Assembly (NCBI GenBank): GCA_963745035.1
Contig: CAVUVW010000014.1
Location: 256,001 to 320,000, forward strand
Reading direction: 5' to 3'
DNA from: an uncultured delta proteobacterium
GTDB taxonomy: Bacteria; Desulfobacterota; Binatia; UBA9968
Length of the DNA: 64,000 nucleotides
A model generated the notes under the pieces. It was given only the letters and a program-made list of their open reading frames with translations. It made no database searches and had not been told where the DNA came from. Numbering within the stretch: position 1 is the first letter of the stretch; the number at the start of each line of letters is the position of its first letter. A program made the position numbers and the translations under genes. This document shows positions 416-37,128 of the stretch, piece after piece.

Positions 416-2884
416 ATGCGTAAGTGGACCCTCGTCGGCGCCGCCATCGTGGTTGTCACGATCATCGTCGTGGCCGGCGTCGTGCTGAATATCAACTCGC
501 TCATCGCGCGCAACAAAGATTACCTGATCGGCCAAGCGGAGCAGGCGCTAAACCGCAAGCTCAAAGTGGGCGAGGTGGAGGCGACTTTTTGGAGCGGTAT
601 CGGCGTGCGCCTCAGCGATTTCGCCATGTCCGAAGACCCAGCCTTTGCCCCGGAAGATTTCGTTCGCGCCCGCGATCTGCAAGTCAATCTCAAGCTCTGG
701 CCGTTGTTGCGAAGAGAAGTCGAGATCAAGAGGCTCATCCTGCATGATCCCGTCATCCGCGTGATCCGGAGCCGGACGGGAGACTTCAATTTTTCGACGA
801 TCGGCAAGAAGCCTTCGGAAAAGCCGGGCGCGCGAGAAAAAAAGTCTGGAGCCAAAGAAAGTCCGGGAGCGTCGCCCGCGTTGCTGGTATCTTTGATCGA
901 TATTTCCGGCGGCGATCTCCGCTACATCGATCGCGCCGACGGCACCGATTTGCAGCTCCGTCAAATCGATCTCAAAGTCGAAGACCTCGACTTCAACCGG
1001 CCGTTTGACGTCAAGCTTGCCGCGGCGATTTACGCCGACAAGCAGAATTTCAATCTCAGCGGCACGATCGGGGCGCTGCGCTCGGACGGAGATTGGACGC
1101 AGATTCCTCTCAACGGCGAGCTGAATATCGATTCTCTCGATCTCACGCGCTTGAAGACGGCGTCGCCCAAGCTGCGCAACGCGCTGCCGCGGGAATTCGA
1201 TCTTTCGGGAATTTTTCGCGCAAAAAGCCTGCGCTTCAAGGGCACCCTCAAAGATTTTGCCCTGAACGGCGATCTCGAAGGCACTCAGGGCGCAATCCGC
1301 TTCGGTCAAGGCTTTCACAAGCCCGCCGGGGTGCCGCTGACGTTGACGGCGGACGCGCGCTATAGCGGCAATAGGATCGCGATCCGCAAAAGCGCGCTCA
1401 AGCTTCATACCTTGGAGCTCGCGAGCGCCGGAGAGATCAATCTCGGCGACGCCGCTGCCCTTAATCTATCGATCGATTCCAAACCGGCGGCGCTGGAGGG
1501 CTGGGACAAGCTCGTCCCCGCCGTGGAGCGTTATCATCTGAAAGGAACCATGGAGATTCAGGCGACCGTGCGCGGCGCGGTCGGCACAGGCGCGGCGCCG
1601 CAGATGCAAGGCACGGTGACTTTAACCAACGCCAGCGCCCAGCCGCCGGATTTTCCCAAGCCGATCGAGAATCTCGACACCATCATTAAATTCGCCGGCC
1701 AGCGCGCCGAGATCCGCGACATGACGCTGACCTTGGGCCGATCGCGCATCCAGCTTGCGGCCGCCATCGAAAAGTTCGCGCCGCTCACGTTAACCTACAA
1801 GATGGCGACGTCGGAAATCTGGCCGGCGGACTACACCGCCGCGCTCAGCGAAGCGCGCAAGACCGATGTCATCCGCGACCTGCGGAGCGAAGGGCGATTC
1901 ACCGCGGCCGGCGCCAATATGGCGTACCAGGGAAAGCTCAGCTCCGCCGTGGGCTCGCTGTATAACGTCGGCTACAAGGACTTGGAGGCGTCGCTCACGC
2001 TGGCAGACAAAGTCGCCAATATCGAGCGCCTGCGCGTCAACGCATTGAGCGGTCAGATCCAGGCGCAGGGTCAATATGCGTTCAAAAATCCGACGCCAAG
2101 CTTCTCGGCCGCCACAAAGCTTCAGGGGATCGACGTGAAAGAGCTTTACAGCGCGCTTGACGCCAAGGCGGAGCGCGATATCCACGGCCGCATGAATGCG
2201 AATATGAAGCTCTCGGGCAGCGGCAAAACCTGGGAGGAGATCAAGCCCGCTCTGCGCGGCCAAGGCGACGCCGAGATCATTCAAGGCGTCATCTATAACT
2301 TCAACATTGCCGAAAACGCGCTCACCGGCATCACCGGCATTCCCGGCTTGACCAATCTCCTCAGCCCGTCGCTACGAAAAAAATATCCGGAAACCTTCAC
2401 CGCCAAAGACACCGAGTTCAAGGAGCTCAAGACCCAAGTCGACATCGCGGACGGCCGCATCAATCTGAAAAATATCCGCATGTCGGCCGCCGAGTTCGTC
2501 GTGGTCGGGAGCGGTTGGGCCGATTTCAACCGGCGCGTCGAAAGCCGCGCCACGCTGACTTTTTCGCAGCGGCTGTCCACCGATCTCGTCCACTCGGCGC
2601 GCGAGACCAAGTATTTGCTGAATAACCAGGGGCAGTTGGAAATGCCTTTTTCCGTCAGCGGTCAGATGCCCAACGTAAAAGCCCAACCCGATGCCAGTTA
2701 TCTCGGACAACTGGTGCAACGTAATTTCATGCGCCGCGGAGCCGAAGAGCTGCAAAACCGCTTGTTGGGACGGCCGGAGCGCGCCGACGAGAGCGCGATC
2801 GCGCCGGAAGATGAGAACAGAAAAAAGAAAAGGTCGACCGAAGATCGTATCCGCCGCGGCTTGGAAAATCTTTTCCGGCGTTGA
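416..2884 (+). CDS. AsmA family outer-membrane assembly / lipid-bridge protein
   Basis: N-terminal TM anchor (MRKWTLVGAAIVVV), AsmA N-term pattern (IGQAEQALNRKLKVG..., VNLKLWPLLRREVEIKRL), AsmA-like C-term (DTEFKELK..IADGRINL); GAGGAG upstream of ATG 416. Confidence 0.88.
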   Translation: MRKWTLVGAAIVVVTIIVVAGVVLNINSLIARNKDYLIGQAEQALNRKLKVGEVEATFWSGIGVRLSDFAMSEDPAFAPEDFVRARDLQVNLKLWPLLRREVEIKRLILHDPVIRVIRSRTGDFNFSTIGKKPSEKPGAREKKSGAKESPGASPALLVSLIDISGGDLRYIDRADGTDLQLRQIDLKVEDLDFNRPFDVKLAAAIYADKQNFNLSGTIGALRSDGDWTQIPLNGELNIDSLDLTRLKTASPKLRNALPREFDLSGIFRAKSLRFKGTLKDFALNGDLEGTQGAIRFGQGFHKPAGVPLTLTADARYSGNRIAIRKSALKLHTLELASAGEINLGDAAALNLSIDSKPAALEGWDKLVPAVERYHLKGTMEIQATVRGAVGTGAAPQMQGTVTLTNASAQPPDFPKPIENLDTIIKFAGQRAEIRDMTLTLGRSRIQLAAAIEKFAPLTLTYKMATSEIWPADYTAALSEARKTDVIRDLRSEGRFTAAGANMAYQGKLSSAVGSLYNVGYKDLEASLTLADKVANIERLRVNALSGQIQAQGQYAFKNPTPSFSAATKLQGIDVKELYSALDAKAERDIHGRMNANMKLSGSGKTWEEIKPALRGQGDAEIIQGVIYNFNIAENALTGITGIPGLTNLLSPSLRKKYPETFTAKDTEFKELKTQVDIADGRINLKNIRMSAAEFVVVGSGWADFNRRVESRATLTFSQRLSTDLVHSARETKYLLNNQGQLEMPFSVSGQMPNVKAQPDASYLGQLVQRNFMRRGAEELQNRLLGRPERADESAIAPEDENRKKKRSTEDRIRRGLENLFRR

Positions 2885-3160
2885 TTCATGATGCACCGCT
2901 GAGATTTTAGCGCATTTGTCCACGCTCGTCTCAGATCAACGAGCCCCACCATTATCAGCGCCGTCGCCGCATCCACTCCGATACTGCCACAGATTTGATA
3001 CGGGCCGACCACGAGGTGCTGTCGCGCATGCGAGACAGCGAATGAAGCGCGCCGAAACAATTCCAGACAGAAATGGCCGCTTCGCGGTGATTTTCGACGC
3101 GGAAGCGCATTTCGCTGCAGTAAAAATCGCTGTCTCGCCGCGACAAGTTGCAACGATTAC

Positions 3161-3175
3161 TGGCATGTATTTTGT
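3161..3175 (+). promoter_or_regulatory. Possible sigma-54 promoter (TGGCAT-N5-TTGT), with palindromic upstream sites at 3020-3037 and 3131-3145
   Basis: tggcatgtattttgt fits -24/-12 spacing with one mismatch at -12; TGTCGC-N6-GAGACA and TGTCTC-N3-GCGACA lie upstream. Confidence 0.3.
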
Positions 3176-3251
3176 GTCTCGACACAATCGCGCGTTCGCT
3201 CTCCGGCGCGTGAGATCGCTCGGCGTCTTCCGCGCCGGCGCCCACACCAAA

Positions 3252-4082
3252 ATGAAGCCGCTTTTCTTTGTTTCTTTTGCAACCATGGGACTGATGCTGC
3301 TTTATCCCCACGCGAGCAGCACGGCCGAGCCGGGGAAACATACGGCGACGCGCGTGGGCCGAGCGCCCGCAGCGCCGGCGCAGCAAGGAAGAATGGCGGC
3401 CACGCGCATGATGCTTCTCGAGCGCAAGAGGGCCTTGCGCGAGCAACTGCAGAAGTCGATGCCGCTTCATGAGGAAAAAATACGGAATCAGAACGACGAT
3501 TATGAAATGAAAAGAGAAATGTATGAGAAGAATTTGATTTCGAAAAATGATGTCGACCGCAGCGAGCAAGCTCTCGCGGGCGCGCAGCTCGATGCAGGAA
3601 AAATCCGCGAGTGGATCGCCGAGGACGACCGCGCCCTGGCGCTCACCGCCGAAGCCGCCGAGGAATCGAAGGGACTACGGCAGGGGCCGAAAGCGGATTT
3701 GGCGAGAGCCGCGCTCATCCGCTTCGATGGGGCATCGAGCTGGTCCATACACGCCTTCGAGAAGATCGAAAGCTTTTTTCGCCGCCAGTTTGGCAAGCCG
3801 CCGCCGGTCAGTGCCATGGGTCAATCGGACACGCACGATCGCTTGGGCCTCGATCACCGTGACGCCGTCGACATCGCGGTGCGCCCGGACAGCGCGGAAG
3901 GGCGCGCATTGATGGCGTATTTACGACGGGCAGGAATCCCGTTCACCGCTTTTCGCGGCAGGCTGTCGAGCATATCCACCGGCGCGCATATCCACGTCGG
4001 CCGGCCTTCACCGCGCCTGCTCGAGGTGAAGCAGCAGCGGGAATCCGCGCAGGAGAGAAACGAGAACGGAGAGCACGGTTAG
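3252..4082 (+). CDS. Secreted coiled-coil protein with C-terminal peptidase M15/DD-peptidase-like Zn motif
   Basis: Signal peptide MKPLFFVSF..., heptad-rich middle, C-term HDRLGLDHRDAVD...GAHIHVG. Confidence 0.6.
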   Translation: MKPLFFVSFATMGLMLLYPHASSTAEPGKHTATRVGRAPAAPAQQGRMAATRMMLLERKRALREQLQKSMPLHEEKIRNQNDDYEMKREMYEKNLISKNDVDRSEQALAGAQLDAGKIREWIAEDDRALALTAEAAEESKGLRQGPKADLARAALIRFDGASSWSIHAFEKIESFFRRQFGKPPPVSAMGQSDTHDRLGLDHRDAVDIAVRPDSAEGRALMAYLRRAGIPFTAFRGRLSSISTGAHIHVGRPSPRLLEVKQQRESAQERNENGEHG

Positions 4083-34130: not shown

Positions 34131-34946
34131 ATGGCCGGCTCCCCACAGAATGCGCTGTTCCTCGGCGGATCGATCCGGACGCCGCTCGGCGTGCAAACGC
34201 TTACGCTACTCCTGGTGATCGCCGTCTGGGAAATCATCGGCCGCACCGGCATTCTCTTCGCCGAGCTGTTTCCACCACTCGTCGAAATCCTCCAATCGCT
34301 TTGGCGCTACCTGACGACGCCGATAATTCTGCCGCACTTGCGGGCCAGTCTCTACGAAGTCGGCGGCGCGCTCGCGCTCGCAGCGCTTTCCGGCATTCCC
34401 TTGGGGATTCTCTGGGGCAGCCGGAAAAGCTGGCTGGAAATCGTCGAGCCGCTGATTCTTTATGCAGCGGTGGTCCCCAAGATCGTGATCTTTCCGGTGT
34501 TCATTCTCTTCTTGGGCATCGACGTTCACTCCAAGCTCGCCGTCGGCGCCATCGCCGCATTCTTTCCCATCTCGCTGTTGACGATCGCCGGCATGCGCGA
34601 GGTCAAGAAAGTCTATATCGACGTGGCGCGCACCGCCGGCGCCAACGCCTATCAAATCGCCACGCGCGTTTATCTGCCGGCCATCGCCGGGCAGGTTTTC
34701 ACGGGCATTCGCATCGGCATGGGCGCGGCAGTGACCGGCGCGCTCTTGGCCGAAACCAAGATCGCCAAAGCCGGGCTTGGCTTCATGATCGTTGAATACT
34801 ACGGCCAGTTCCGCATCGCCGACATGTACTCTTTATTGCTTTTTATTTTTATCCTGGCCGCCCTGGCCAATTGGGCGATGAAGGCTTTGTTTGCCCGGCT
34901 ATCGCCGAGCGCGCGCGCCGCTCAGGATGCCGCAATGTACTTCTAA
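34131..34946 (+). CDS. ABC transporter permease (TauC/SsuC-like)
   Basis: YIDVARTAGANAYQIATRVYLPA loop; hydrophobic segments. Confidence 0.9.
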   Translation: MAGSPQNALFLGGSIRTPLGVQTLTLLLVIAVWEIIGRTGILFAELFPPLVEILQSLWRYLTTPIILPHLRASLYEVGGALALAALSGIPLGILWGSRKSWLEIVEPLILYAAVVPKIVIFPVFILFLGIDVHSKLAVGAIAAFFPISLLTIAGMREVKKVYIDVARTAGANAYQIATRVYLPAIAGQVFTGIRIGMGAAVTGALLAETKIAKAGLGFMIVEYYGQFRIADMYSLLLFIFILAALANWAMKALFARLSPSARAAQDAAMYF

Positions 34947-34960
34947 CGATCGAGCGCACT

Positions 34961-35734
34961 ATGAAAGAGCTTTTCATCATGCTGCGCCAGCGCCTGGGCA
35001 CCACGCGAATCGCGCGCCGGCTTTATCGTCTGCTACCGTCGGGCAAACGCTGCAAGGAATGCCTCGTGCCGTTTCTCGGGCTCTGCTCCTTGCCGTTTCG
35101 TCTGTTACAGATCCGCCCGTCGCGGAAGAATCCCAACCTCTGCACGCTTTGATACGAGCTGGCTCCTCCGGGCGGGGAGACGCTCAACATTTCGATTTTG
35201 TTCGCCGATATCCGCGGCTTTACCGCCTTCGCCGAACAGCTCCATCCCGCGGACGTGGCGGCGCGACTCAATCGTTTCTACGAGCTTGCTTCGCGGGCGA
35301 TCTTTCGCCGCGACGGCACCCTCGACAAGCTCGTCGGCGATCAGGTCATGGCATTTTTCGGTGCGCCCATTGGCCGCGATGATCATGCCGGGCGAGCGGT
35401 GGCAACCGCGCGAGAGATCATGCGCGCTCTCGCCGCGCCGGAGGCGGGAGAGCGCTTGAGCGTCGGCATCGGTATCTCCACCGGCGAAGCGTTTGTCGGC
35501 AACGTCGGCGGCGGCGAGGTGGCCGACTACACCGTGCTCGGCGACACGGTGAACGTCGCCGCGCGGCTGCAAGGCGAGGCGGCATCCGGCGAAATTCTTG
35601 TATCGCACGAAACCTATGCGCGGGTCGCGACGGAATTTCCCTATGCGAAACGCCGCGAGCTCTTGCTCAAGGGCAAAAGCGAGCCGGTGATCGCCTGGGA
35701 GATCATGCGAGACGCGCTGCGGCGCGGTAGGTAG
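34961..35734 (+). CDS. Class III adenylate cyclase with N-terminal CxxC...CxxU module; candidate selenoprotein (TGA 35150-35152 = Sec64)
   Basis: RCKEC...RPSRKNPNLCTL-TGA-YELAPPGGETLNISILFADIRGFT reads in one frame; catalytic DKLVGD and TVLGDTVNVAARL intact; hairpin 3' of the TGA. Confidence 0.8.
35153..35185 (+). promoter_or_regulatory. Putative bacterial SECIS element
   Basis: Lower stem gagc/gctc; upper stem ctcctc/ggggag; G-rich loop cgggc starting 16 nt after the UGA. Confidence 0.6.
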
Positions 35735-35770
35735 CTAGCGTGATAGGGCGTTTCATGGGGATTAAGCACC

Positions 35771-35952
35771 TTCACCACGAAGGTGCGAAGGACAGGCGGT
35801 GGTTGAGTTTTTTAACCGGAAAGAGAAAGATTTCTCACTTCGTTCGAAATCACAGCGTCTACTATTGTTGTCATTCCGAACAGATGTGAGGAATCTATCC
35901 GGAGGCTTTCATTATTTTGTCGGCGAGCGTAAGCTCATGAATCACTTCGTGG
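35771..35952 (-). repeat. MITE-like dispersed repeat, copy 2, with a different internal REP-type cassette
   Basis: Ends accacgaag ... cttcgtggt; shares 33 bp with 33042-33074; internal agatttctcacttcgttcgaaat / gtcattccgaacagatgtgaggaatct. Confidence 0.65.
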
Positions 35953-36029: not shown

Positions 36030-37128
36030 ATGGAAAATAACAAGGATCTCGTGATCGATGCCGATGCTCACGTCGTCGAGTGCGCGCGCACGTGGGAGTT
36101 TATGGATCCGTCCGAGGAGCGCTACCGGCCCATCCCGCTCGAAACCCGCGAGGAGGCGGGTGTCCGGCTTCAGTTCTGGGTGATCGACGGCAAAGTCAAA
36201 GGGTTTCGCTTCCCGGCTTTCTCTGCTGACGAGCTGGCCAAGCGCGCCCAACAAGTCGGCCGCAAGTTTGCCGACGCGCAGGAGGCGCGCGAGCTGGGCA
36301 ACGTCGATCTGCGGTTGGAGCACATGGACGAGACCGGCGTCGACGTGCAGGTGCTGCACAACACGATGTTTATCGAATCCGCCACCGATCGGGCCGCAGT
36401 CGAAGTCGCGTTGTGCAAGAGTTGGAACCGCTGGCTGGCCGATATCTGGAAGCGCGGAAAGGGACGGCTCCGCTGGTCCTGCATGGCGCCGACGCTCAGC
36501 ATGCCGGACGCCCTCGATCAGATTCGCTGGTCGCAGGAAAACGGCGCGTGCGCGGTTCTGCTTGCGCCCGATCGAAGGTCAGCGTTTGCTCGCCGATCCG
36601 TATTTTTATCCGATTTATGACGAAGCGCAGAAACTCGACATGCCGATCGCGATTCATATCGCCAACGGCAATCCGTGGCTGACCGACTTGTATAACCATC
36701 CCGTGCGCATCGCCTCGACCTTTCATCGCTTCAGAATCCCCACCGTAGGGGCATTCAATGACATCATCATGAGCGAGATCCACGACGTTTTTCCCAAGCT
36801 GCGCTTCGGCTTCATCGAAGCGAGCGCCCAATGGCTGCCCTGGGTGATGCATGAAGCGAGAAATCGTTTCAAAACGCTCGGCAGGAAGTGGCCGGAAAAC
36901 GCGATCCACGAGTTTGGCATGTATGTCACCTGTGAAAATTCCGATGACATTGCATACATCGCGCGCGAAGCCGGCGAAGATTGTCTCGTCATAGGCACCG
37001 ACTACGGCCATACCGATACTTCCAGCGACGTCGATGCGATCAAGACTTTTCGCGCAAGAAGCGATCTTTCCGGCGCGGTAAAGCAGAAAATTTTAAGCGA
37101 TAACGCCCGAGCGCTCTACGCGCTGTAA
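36030..37128 (+). CDS. Amidohydrolase_2 family protein (frameshift near 36560)
   Basis: IDADAHVVE; ORF 36030-36620 joins the frame containing DPYFYPIY, PKLRFGFIEA, IGTDYGHTD. Confidence 0.87.

Follow-up and report, generated by a model that had tools for sequence, protein, structure and literature searches.

The soluble adenylate cyclases CyaC of Spirulina platensis and CyaB of Pseudomonas aeruginosa are regulated by bicarbonate and through N-terminal domains other than the one described here. Cyclases of this Lys/Thr type carry the label class IIIb, which we take to be bicarbonate-responsive by definition. Bacterial selenoproteins, to our knowledge, are overwhelmingly oxidoreductases, transporters or metal-handling proteins. 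Here we analyze a gene at 34961..35737 on the plus strand of a 64,000-nt stretch of DNA from an uncultured delta proteobacterium (assembly GCA_963745035.1, contig CAVUVW010000014.1, positions 256,001 to 320,000; hereafter the window). It is probably a single gene for a selenoprotein adenylate cyclase of 257 residues, in which the UGA at 35150 is read as selenocysteine (Sec). All features of this gene lie on the plus strand.

CyaC (Protein Data Bank (PDB) entry 1wc1) and CyaB (3r5g) share with the encoded protein the catalytic fold, the Lys/Thr pair, two Asp residues, the Asn and the Arg, but unlike it they have neither a CxxC...CxxC/U module nor Sec. The thioredoxin-fold CxxU and UxxC selenoproteins (thioredoxin, glutaredoxin, DsbA-like and peroxiredoxin-like) resemble it in the Cys/Sec pair within a CxxC motif and in the repeated interchange of the two residues; they differ in that no such fold family was found here, a second invariant CxxC lies 26 residues upstream and the output is a signaling enzyme. 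FmdB is a zinc-ribbon family. Its putative regulatory selenoprotein (TIGR02605, UxxU), as tabulated in PMC13188914, is likewise a small protein outside the thioredoxin group with Sec in place of Cys in a CxxC-type pair, but our module has no match to TIGR02605 at E values up to 10, carries Sec only as its fourth ligand and is fused to a cyclase. The membrane protein CyaC of Sinorhizobium meliloti is likewise a class III cyclase with a redox-responsive cyclic AMP (cAMP) output; according to the abstract of PMC10463352, it senses the respiratory chain and quinones via a membrane domain, with no Cys4 module and no selenium mentioned there.

Translation table 11 cuts the gene into two open reading frames (ORFs), 34871-35152 and 35198-35734. 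The ATG at 34961 is in frame with the TGA at 35150-35152 and the frame then stays open to a TAG at 35735-35737; with the TGA read as Sec, it yields the 257-residue product, to which orthologues align from residue 1 across the TGA. This product contains RCKEC (C31, C34), then, after 26 residues, C61-T-L-U64, and further on FADIRGFT, DKLVGD and TVLGDTVNVAARL. A preliminary description of this DNA, made from the letters alone, had proposed that the ORF list splits one gene running from ATG 34961 through the TGA into a complete class III cyclase, and both the frame and a match to Pfam PF00211 bear this out. Its further claim, that the downstream half lacks a good start and would lose its first β-strand, also holds: the first in-frame start 3′ of the TGA is the TTG at 35198 (codon 80), and initiation there would cut into the catalytic strand β1, as this strand covers residues 73-84 in the AlphaFold model.

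Support for Sec at this codon comes from relatives. Among 134 related loci that include the column, 80 have TGA and 53 have TGC or TGT; one copy is frameshifted, and neither TAA nor TAG occurs. The column was present in 24 of 30 loci fetched after a search of 301 genomes of the same class (14 TGA, 10 TGC/TGT), in 33 of 39 loci examined in GTDB species genomes (31 TGA, one TGT, one broken frame) and in 77 of 80 loci on metagenome contigs, where the query was an alignment of Cys forms (35 TGA, 42 Cys codons). Two unpublished genomes, G183 and G213, are counted only in the 301-genome tally, and no claim is built on them. Some loci from different collections represent the same genome; removal of duplicates and short rows left 122 distinct proteins (70 U, 52 C). 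A FastTree phylogeny of these rows requires at least seven changes between U and C, five of them forced by well-supported branches, and Sec is kept in 59 of the 60 rows of one large clade. Orthologues with TGA and conserved flanks occur in metagenome-assembled genomes labeled Binatia and Dehalococcoidia/Chloroflexi, as well as on metagenome contigs; the record titles of the loci from GTDB species genomes read Candidatus Binatia, "delta proteobacterium", Syntrophobacteraceae, Dehalococcoidia and Chloroflexi. The Sec forms present several motif contexts (CT[LMIV]U-YE, CAFU, CPSU, CNRU, CN[LTG]U-FE and CTLU-CE).

Of the 120 best matches in a word-indexed search of 5.8 billion proteins, 110 are 157-197 residues long and, at 63-96% identity, align with no more than the C-terminal 60-74% of the query. 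In the remaining ten, which are near full length (225-267 residues, 53-60% identity), the motif is SRKNPxxC[T]xC-YE and the U column is occupied by Cys. Cys at position 64 had been anticipated for homologues, and is seen both in the 53 Cys codons and in the full-length database homologues, where it is invariant; alignments of the latter also confirm the NPxxCxxC motif that the preliminary description had given for related cyclases. Synonymous sites 5′ of the TGA are free to vary (third-position entropy 1.6-1.9 bits), yet the peptide encoded there is conserved, as is the amino-acid sequence 3′ of the TGA, which indicates protein-level selection on both halves of the gene. The downstream part lacks a conserved start codon: codon 67 varies among CTG, CTC, TTC, TTT, TTG and CTT, and in 15 of 34 sequences the first 15 codons 3′ of the TGA contain no in-frame start.

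Two of the collected loci show frame troubles of their own. L075 (match 3001-3747) loses the frame a few codons 5′ of the Sec column, and the alignment of L086 (match 3001-3716) reaches only query residues 94-245, over a match of 716 nt that is not a multiple of three. Both are probably assembly indels.

The TGA is also present in independently assembled sequence. DNA contig X1, from another public run, covers 34700-35553 and spans the codon unchanged. Contig X16, from a metatranscriptomic library, covers 34994-35229 and likewise carries the TGA, differing from the window at one position, 35090. Two other DNA contigs stop 27-29 nt past the TGA and are not counted as bridging. The occurrence of X16 in an RNA library suggests that the gene is transcribed, with the proviso that such libraries can contain DNA.

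A Sec codon in bacteria is expected to be followed by a selenocysteine insertion sequence (SECIS), and a SECIS-like upper hairpin of 17 nt lies at 35163..35179, within codons A68-P-P-G-G-E73. Its arms, 35163-35168 and 35174-35179, form six base pairs around the loop CGGGC at 35169-35173. The preliminary description had placed the beginning of a stem-loop 16 nt after the UGA; this distance holds for the loop; the 5′ arm lies closer, beginning at 35163, 10 nt past the UGA. Folding predicts an extended stem around the upper hairpin (35156..35185, with 35156-35161 pairing with 35181-35185), giving −14.3 kcal/mol for the 45 nt 3′ of the UGA, but this lower stem is particular to the present genome and shows no conservation among the orthologues compared. 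The bacterial SECIS model, as set out in the Fig. 2 legend of PMC13188914, calls for a loop of 3-9 nt, a stem of at least 4 bp, a G in the first two loop positions, a distance of 16-37 nt from the UGA and a minimum free energy of at most −7.5 kcal/mol. Measured against that legend, the 5-nt loop, 6-bp stem and 16-nt spacing fit, as does the energy of the extended fold.

Because fold energy proved no better than in shuffled sequences, we dropped it as evidence for a SECIS and relied instead on comparative synonymous constraint. RNAalifold recovered the same 6-bp stem and 5-nt loop from 34 distinct sequences of the main subfamily, in which 98% of 204 cells pair, compared with 51-81% in controls with slid partners. 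Position 27 is C in 23 sequences and U in 11, either of which pairs with G, and two sequences replace U-A by G-U on both sides of the pair. Among 50 conserved four-fold degenerate columns, the three lowest third-position entropies are those of A68 (0.35 bits), P70 (0.20 bits) and G72 (0.00 bits), against 0.83-1.95 bits outside the hairpin codons. A68 and G72 lie in the stem, and P70 provides with its third base the second loop nucleotide, a G; codon use at the three sites is nearly fixed (GCT in 28 of 30, CCG in 32 of 33 and GGG in 34 of 34 sequences, respectively). The third position of Gly71, in the loop, varies freely among C, T and A, and P69 takes only C or T. Elsewhere in the gene, GGG makes up 0-41% of any Gly column and GCT is rare. 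The sole Cys form of the main subfamily (L132, the same as P0010) reads CCT GGT GGT, and its stem is broken.

Other Sec lineages have hairpins of their own, with loops GGC, GGU or GGUC. Of the 70 U forms, 49 passed a purpose-written perfect-stem scanner for the bacterial SECIS criteria, used in place of bSECISearch; of the 52 C forms, 7 did, counts that come from related sequences and are not a formal test. The downstream minimum free energies, −14.7 kcal/mol for U forms and −12.9 kcal/mol for C forms, differ only slightly, with a Mann-Whitney p of 7e-4, again over sequences that are not independent. The comparison with relatives, rather than energy, is thus evidence that the hairpin is more than chance, and many independent genomes share, as had been anticipated, the TGA (80 loci) and, within the main subfamily, a conserved hairpin.

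The source genome (7.4 Mb in 28 contigs, 92.6% complete, 5.8% contamination) contains selA (592 bits), selD (385 bits) and a tRNA-Sec with anticodon TCA, all above cut-offs. The selA, selB and selD genes adjoin one another on contig C17. The selD gene (locus L010, G000:C17:317316-321242, match 1501-2427) has an in-frame TGA of its own at residue 11 of the match (...KAAG-U-AAKLG), which implies a Sec-containing selenophosphate synthetase. Of the machinery that the preliminary description had looked to this genome for, selA, selD and selC (the tRNA-Sec) are thus in place, and selB is above cut-off but runs over two frames. On locus L001 (G000:C17:315180-319373), selB profile positions 2-382 fall in the ORF at 1492-3426 and positions 448-580 in the ORF at 2813-3529, with the switch near L001:2870-2895; selB is contiguous in all four relatives compared. 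An assembly indel seems likelier than a dead selB, because a second gene in the window, at 36051-37125, also shows a single break of frame when compared with its relatives: it occupies two frames, with a switch near 36559-36569, and corresponds to a single 387-residue ORF in the relative L053. All 15 other Sec-form genomes tested have selA, but so do all five Cys-form genomes tested, and we accordingly dropped co-occurrence with the Sec machinery as evidence.

Several of these observations weigh against decoding of the UGA as Sec. The bare 17-nt hairpin folds at only −6.8 kcal/mol, owing to a U-G pair, and so misses the −7.5 kcal/mol cut-off of the model. The 76 nt at 35140-35215 have a z-score of +1.72, with equal or better folding in 193 of 200 shuffles. 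A conserved APPGGE peptide, whose codons favor runs of C and G, is encoded across the hairpin; some Cys forms also fold well (L161, −22.3 kcal/mol); true covariation is confined to one pair in two sequences; and the relatedness of the sequences means that the shuffle and rank statistics overstate significance. The Sec machinery does not discriminate, being present in Cys-form genomes as well, and a real frameshift in selB would leave this strain unable to decode Sec. This last point underlies the reading in which the selB frameshift is genuine, translation ends at 35150 and what is left is a selenoprotein gene in decay. The contiguity of selB in all four relatives agrees with it, but the selD of the same genome still needs its TGA decoded, the cyclase ORF is otherwise intact on either side of the TGA and the similar break in the gene at 36051-37125 suggests assembly indels; we regard it as improbable. 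Far less probable still is that the TGA is an ordinary stop, separating a 63-residue peptide from a separately initiated cyclase, or a sequencing error. Gene callers do annotate two ORFs, and the hairpin energy is unremarkable. Against this stand the absence of TAA and TAG from the column in all 134 loci, the conservation of frame and peptide across the TGA with no conserved downstream start, the damage to strand β1 that a start at 35198 would entail and, for both versions, the identical TGA in independent assemblies and contigs; contigs X1 and X16 settle in favor of TGA the check that the preliminary description had proposed at 35150. An alternative genetic code was rejected, as TGA is normally a stop here, closing 12 of the 30 long ORFs in the window and many orthologues of the cyclase gene itself. 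Reading the in-frame TGA at 35150..35152 as Sec (U64), the fourth ligand of the N-terminal module, accords both with the TGA/Cys column and with the two contigs.

The C-terminal part of this probable selenoprotein is a class III nucleotidyl cyclase catalytic domain (35186..35683, residues 76-241), recognized by Pfam PF00211 with an E value of 1.8e-25 and 90 bits against a cut-off of 21.9, by alignment and by Foldseek. An AlphaFold model built on a 37-sequence alignment has a mean predicted local distance difference test score (pLDDT) of 89.3 and a predicted template modeling score (pTM) of 0.86. Its best Foldseek match in the PDB is CyaC (1wc1; E 4.5e-19, target-normalized template modeling score 0.85, 37% identity), followed by Cya2 and CyaB, and phmmer matches the soluble class IIIb cyclases of the PDB with E values from 3.4e-28 to 3.8e-26. 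Residues D83, K123, D127, T191, N198 and R202 are invariant in the homologue alignments and align with the motifs of CyaB and Cya2. We assume the standard roles for them, with D83 and D127 as the metal-binding Asp residues, K123 and T191 as the substrate pair, and N198 and R202 as the transition-state Asn and Arg. In the alignment, T191 corresponds to the Thr of CyaB 'DYTIIG', whereas the guanylyl cyclase Cya2 has Glu and Gly at the positions of K123 and T191. The Lys/Thr pair supports ATP as the likely substrate, as the preliminary description had argued from the same residues, and K123 and T191 match the pattern of the ATP-specific CyaB and CyaC.

The N-terminal module (35027..35158, residues ~23-66, about 45 in all) reads LPSxxRC31KEC34 ... 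PSRKNPNLC61TLU64 and is defined by invariance and by profile search. Residues P26, R30, C31, C34, P37, G40, S54-R-K-N-P58, C61 and C/U64 are invariant in 37 sequences, and the four ligands C31, C34, C61 and C/U64 are invariant in a set of 44 as well. In the full-length AlphaFold model, the module has pLDDT values of 87-93; it is predicted to form a β-knuckle at C31/C34 and to place C61/U64 at the start of a short helix (H62-66), with U64 nine residues before the first catalytic strand β1. Modeled in isolation, it has a pLDDT of 71, and its best Foldseek match has an E value of 4.4, heading a weak list of LIM, RING and ribosomal zinc proteins, none of them significant. The predicted elements resemble a treble-clef or zinc-ribbon site.

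Profile searches gave no name to this module. Pfam and NCBIfam (release 20.0) contain no model that matches the N-terminal 72 residues at E values up to 10, the nearest being sub-threshold CXXCH noise on one homologue; a PDB sequence search returned no match covering query residues 1-69, and an Atlas search with the natural Cys homologue P0010 returned only unnamed clusters and cyclases. The module does not group with the thioredoxin-fold CxxU selenoproteins: no such family was found at E values up to 10 on the N-terminal 72 residues, where one knuckle and two short helices are predicted. Searched against 1.84 billion proteins, a profile of the module itself found 896 cluster representatives at E ≤0.001. 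Of the best 150 of these 896, 34 have the PF00211 cyclase domain and no other output domain recurs; ten are stubs whose last residue directly precedes the fourth ligand, and they represent the other halves of the truncated cyclases. In two representatives the unit of module and cyclase follows a MerC-like membrane domain, and in one it continues into a cyclic nucleotide (cNMP)-binding Crp-type regulator (P0227, P0262, P0269).

These features lead us to propose how such a protein might work. SelB and tRNA-Sec would decode the UGA at 35150 as Sec, directed by the 17-nt hairpin 10 nt downstream. The product would be a soluble Lys/Thr-type adenylate cyclase of class III, most similar to CyaC and CyaB and equipped with the six canonical catalytic residues, and, by analogy, it would act as a head-to-tail homodimer. 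The four ligands (C31, C34, C61 and U64) would coordinate a metal (Zn or Fe), or else a selenylsulfide would form among them. The selenolate, being very reactive, would be the target of oxidants or thiophilic metals, and the resulting change in the module would alter cyclase activity. We rate at about even the chance that the ligands do bind metal or form a selenylsulfide and that changes at the U64 site alter cyclase activity, the latter because U64 lies only nine residues from strand β1. A thiophilic-metal input, suggested by the MerC fusions and the affinity of selenium for soft metals, is a lead rather than a finding. Quite apart from such a switch, the catalytic domain is encoded 3′ of the UGA and would thus be made only with Sec-tRNA, so that cAMP output would also be gated by selenium supply.

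A further-reaching reading, to which we give somewhat less than even odds, is that the Cys3-Sec module is a selenium sensor, whose selenolate-metal site or selenylsulfide reacts with oxidants or soft metals (Hg, Cu) and directly switches a second-messenger synthase. The modest pLDDT of the isolated module (71) and the lack of a significant PDB neighbor count against a sensor role. An unlikely alternative is that the selenoprotein cyclase is genuine and its module a structural Zn site or dimerization element, with the choice of Sec or Cys a lineage habit of selenium-rich organisms and no sensing involved. The four invariant ligands and the knuckle-plus-helix arrangement do look like ordinary structural zinc fingers, Cys and Sec have interchanged repeatedly, Cys-form genomes also have the Sec machinery and no partner gene is conserved beyond the closest kin. 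But Sec is costly and seldom kept at purely structural sites, whereas here it is retained in 59 of 60 rows of a large clade; the module also sits nine residues from β1 and, among its best 150 matches, recurs only with cyclase domains (34 with PF00211). Redox-active CxxC proteins have their motif at the start of a helix. This is where the CxxU lies here (H62-66), and most known bacterial selenoproteins are redox proteins, as stated in PMC13188914. Both points speak for a third reading, in which no metal is bound and C61-x-x-U64 is a redox-active selenylsulfide/selenol couple that switches the cyclase by bond formation. The lack of a match to any thioredoxin-fold family tells against this, as does the equal invariance of C31 and C34, which a single CxxU couple leaves unexplained, and we hold it to be slightly less likely than the structural site.

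Surveys of bacterial selenoproteins do not appear to include this family. The word "cyclase" is absent from the main texts, taken without supplementary tables, of PMC13188914 (2026 review with a table of prokaryotic families), PMC12013277 (deep-Sep), PMC9312934 (2022 review), PMC2398784 (GOS), PMC1976440 (Olavius symbiont) and PMC5029168 (2016 ISME J survey). It is likewise absent from the main texts of BSepDB (PMC13326102), whose supplementary list of 111 families was outside the scope, and of the Haft & Gwadz preprint (10.1101/2022.07.06.499078). Full-text literature searches, with subscription journals and Haft & Tolstoy 2025 outside their scope, found no bacterial Sec-cyclase, and NCBIfam 20.0 contains no specific model for the family. 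We regard the family as real, widespread and well supported, and as apparently uncatalogued within the literature searched.

Sec in a non-catalytic input module of an adenylate cyclase would feed selenium chemistry directly into second-messenger signaling. If the module is indeed a sensor, this would be the first selenoprotein whose job is signaling rather than redox catalysis, and its cAMP output would also be tied to selenium supply. Most database entries of the family are truncated (110 of the 120 closest matches, as well as the N-terminal stubs), so that annotation captures neither the family nor its module nor its size. Such entries, including those of the 80 TGA loci, which come from soil, rhizosphere and groundwater genomes, would be repaired by a curated model that allows for a Sec exception. 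At least five lineages contain natural Sec/Cys pairs, in which the contribution of Sec to a four-ligand site can be examined.

The same genome encodes two further paralogues (G000:C13:1140314-1140979 and G000:C14:882434-883105), which match the query from residue 26-29 onward at 38-39% identity, have no internal stop and are presumably Cys forms. The selenoprotein cyclase gene is preceded by ABC permease genes and followed by genes for an amidohydrolase-like protein and an LLM oxidoreductase, a neighborhood that, among 23 loci compared, is common only to the closest kin (L023, L052 and L053), with no conserved partner gene beyond them. Immediately 3′ of the gene, the intergenic segment at 35807-35900 has many loose contig ends, and its summed contig depths in three unrelated soil and rhizosphere metagenome runs are ~50-210, compared with ~2-6 over 35602-35806. 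This segment looks like a multi-copy short repeat.

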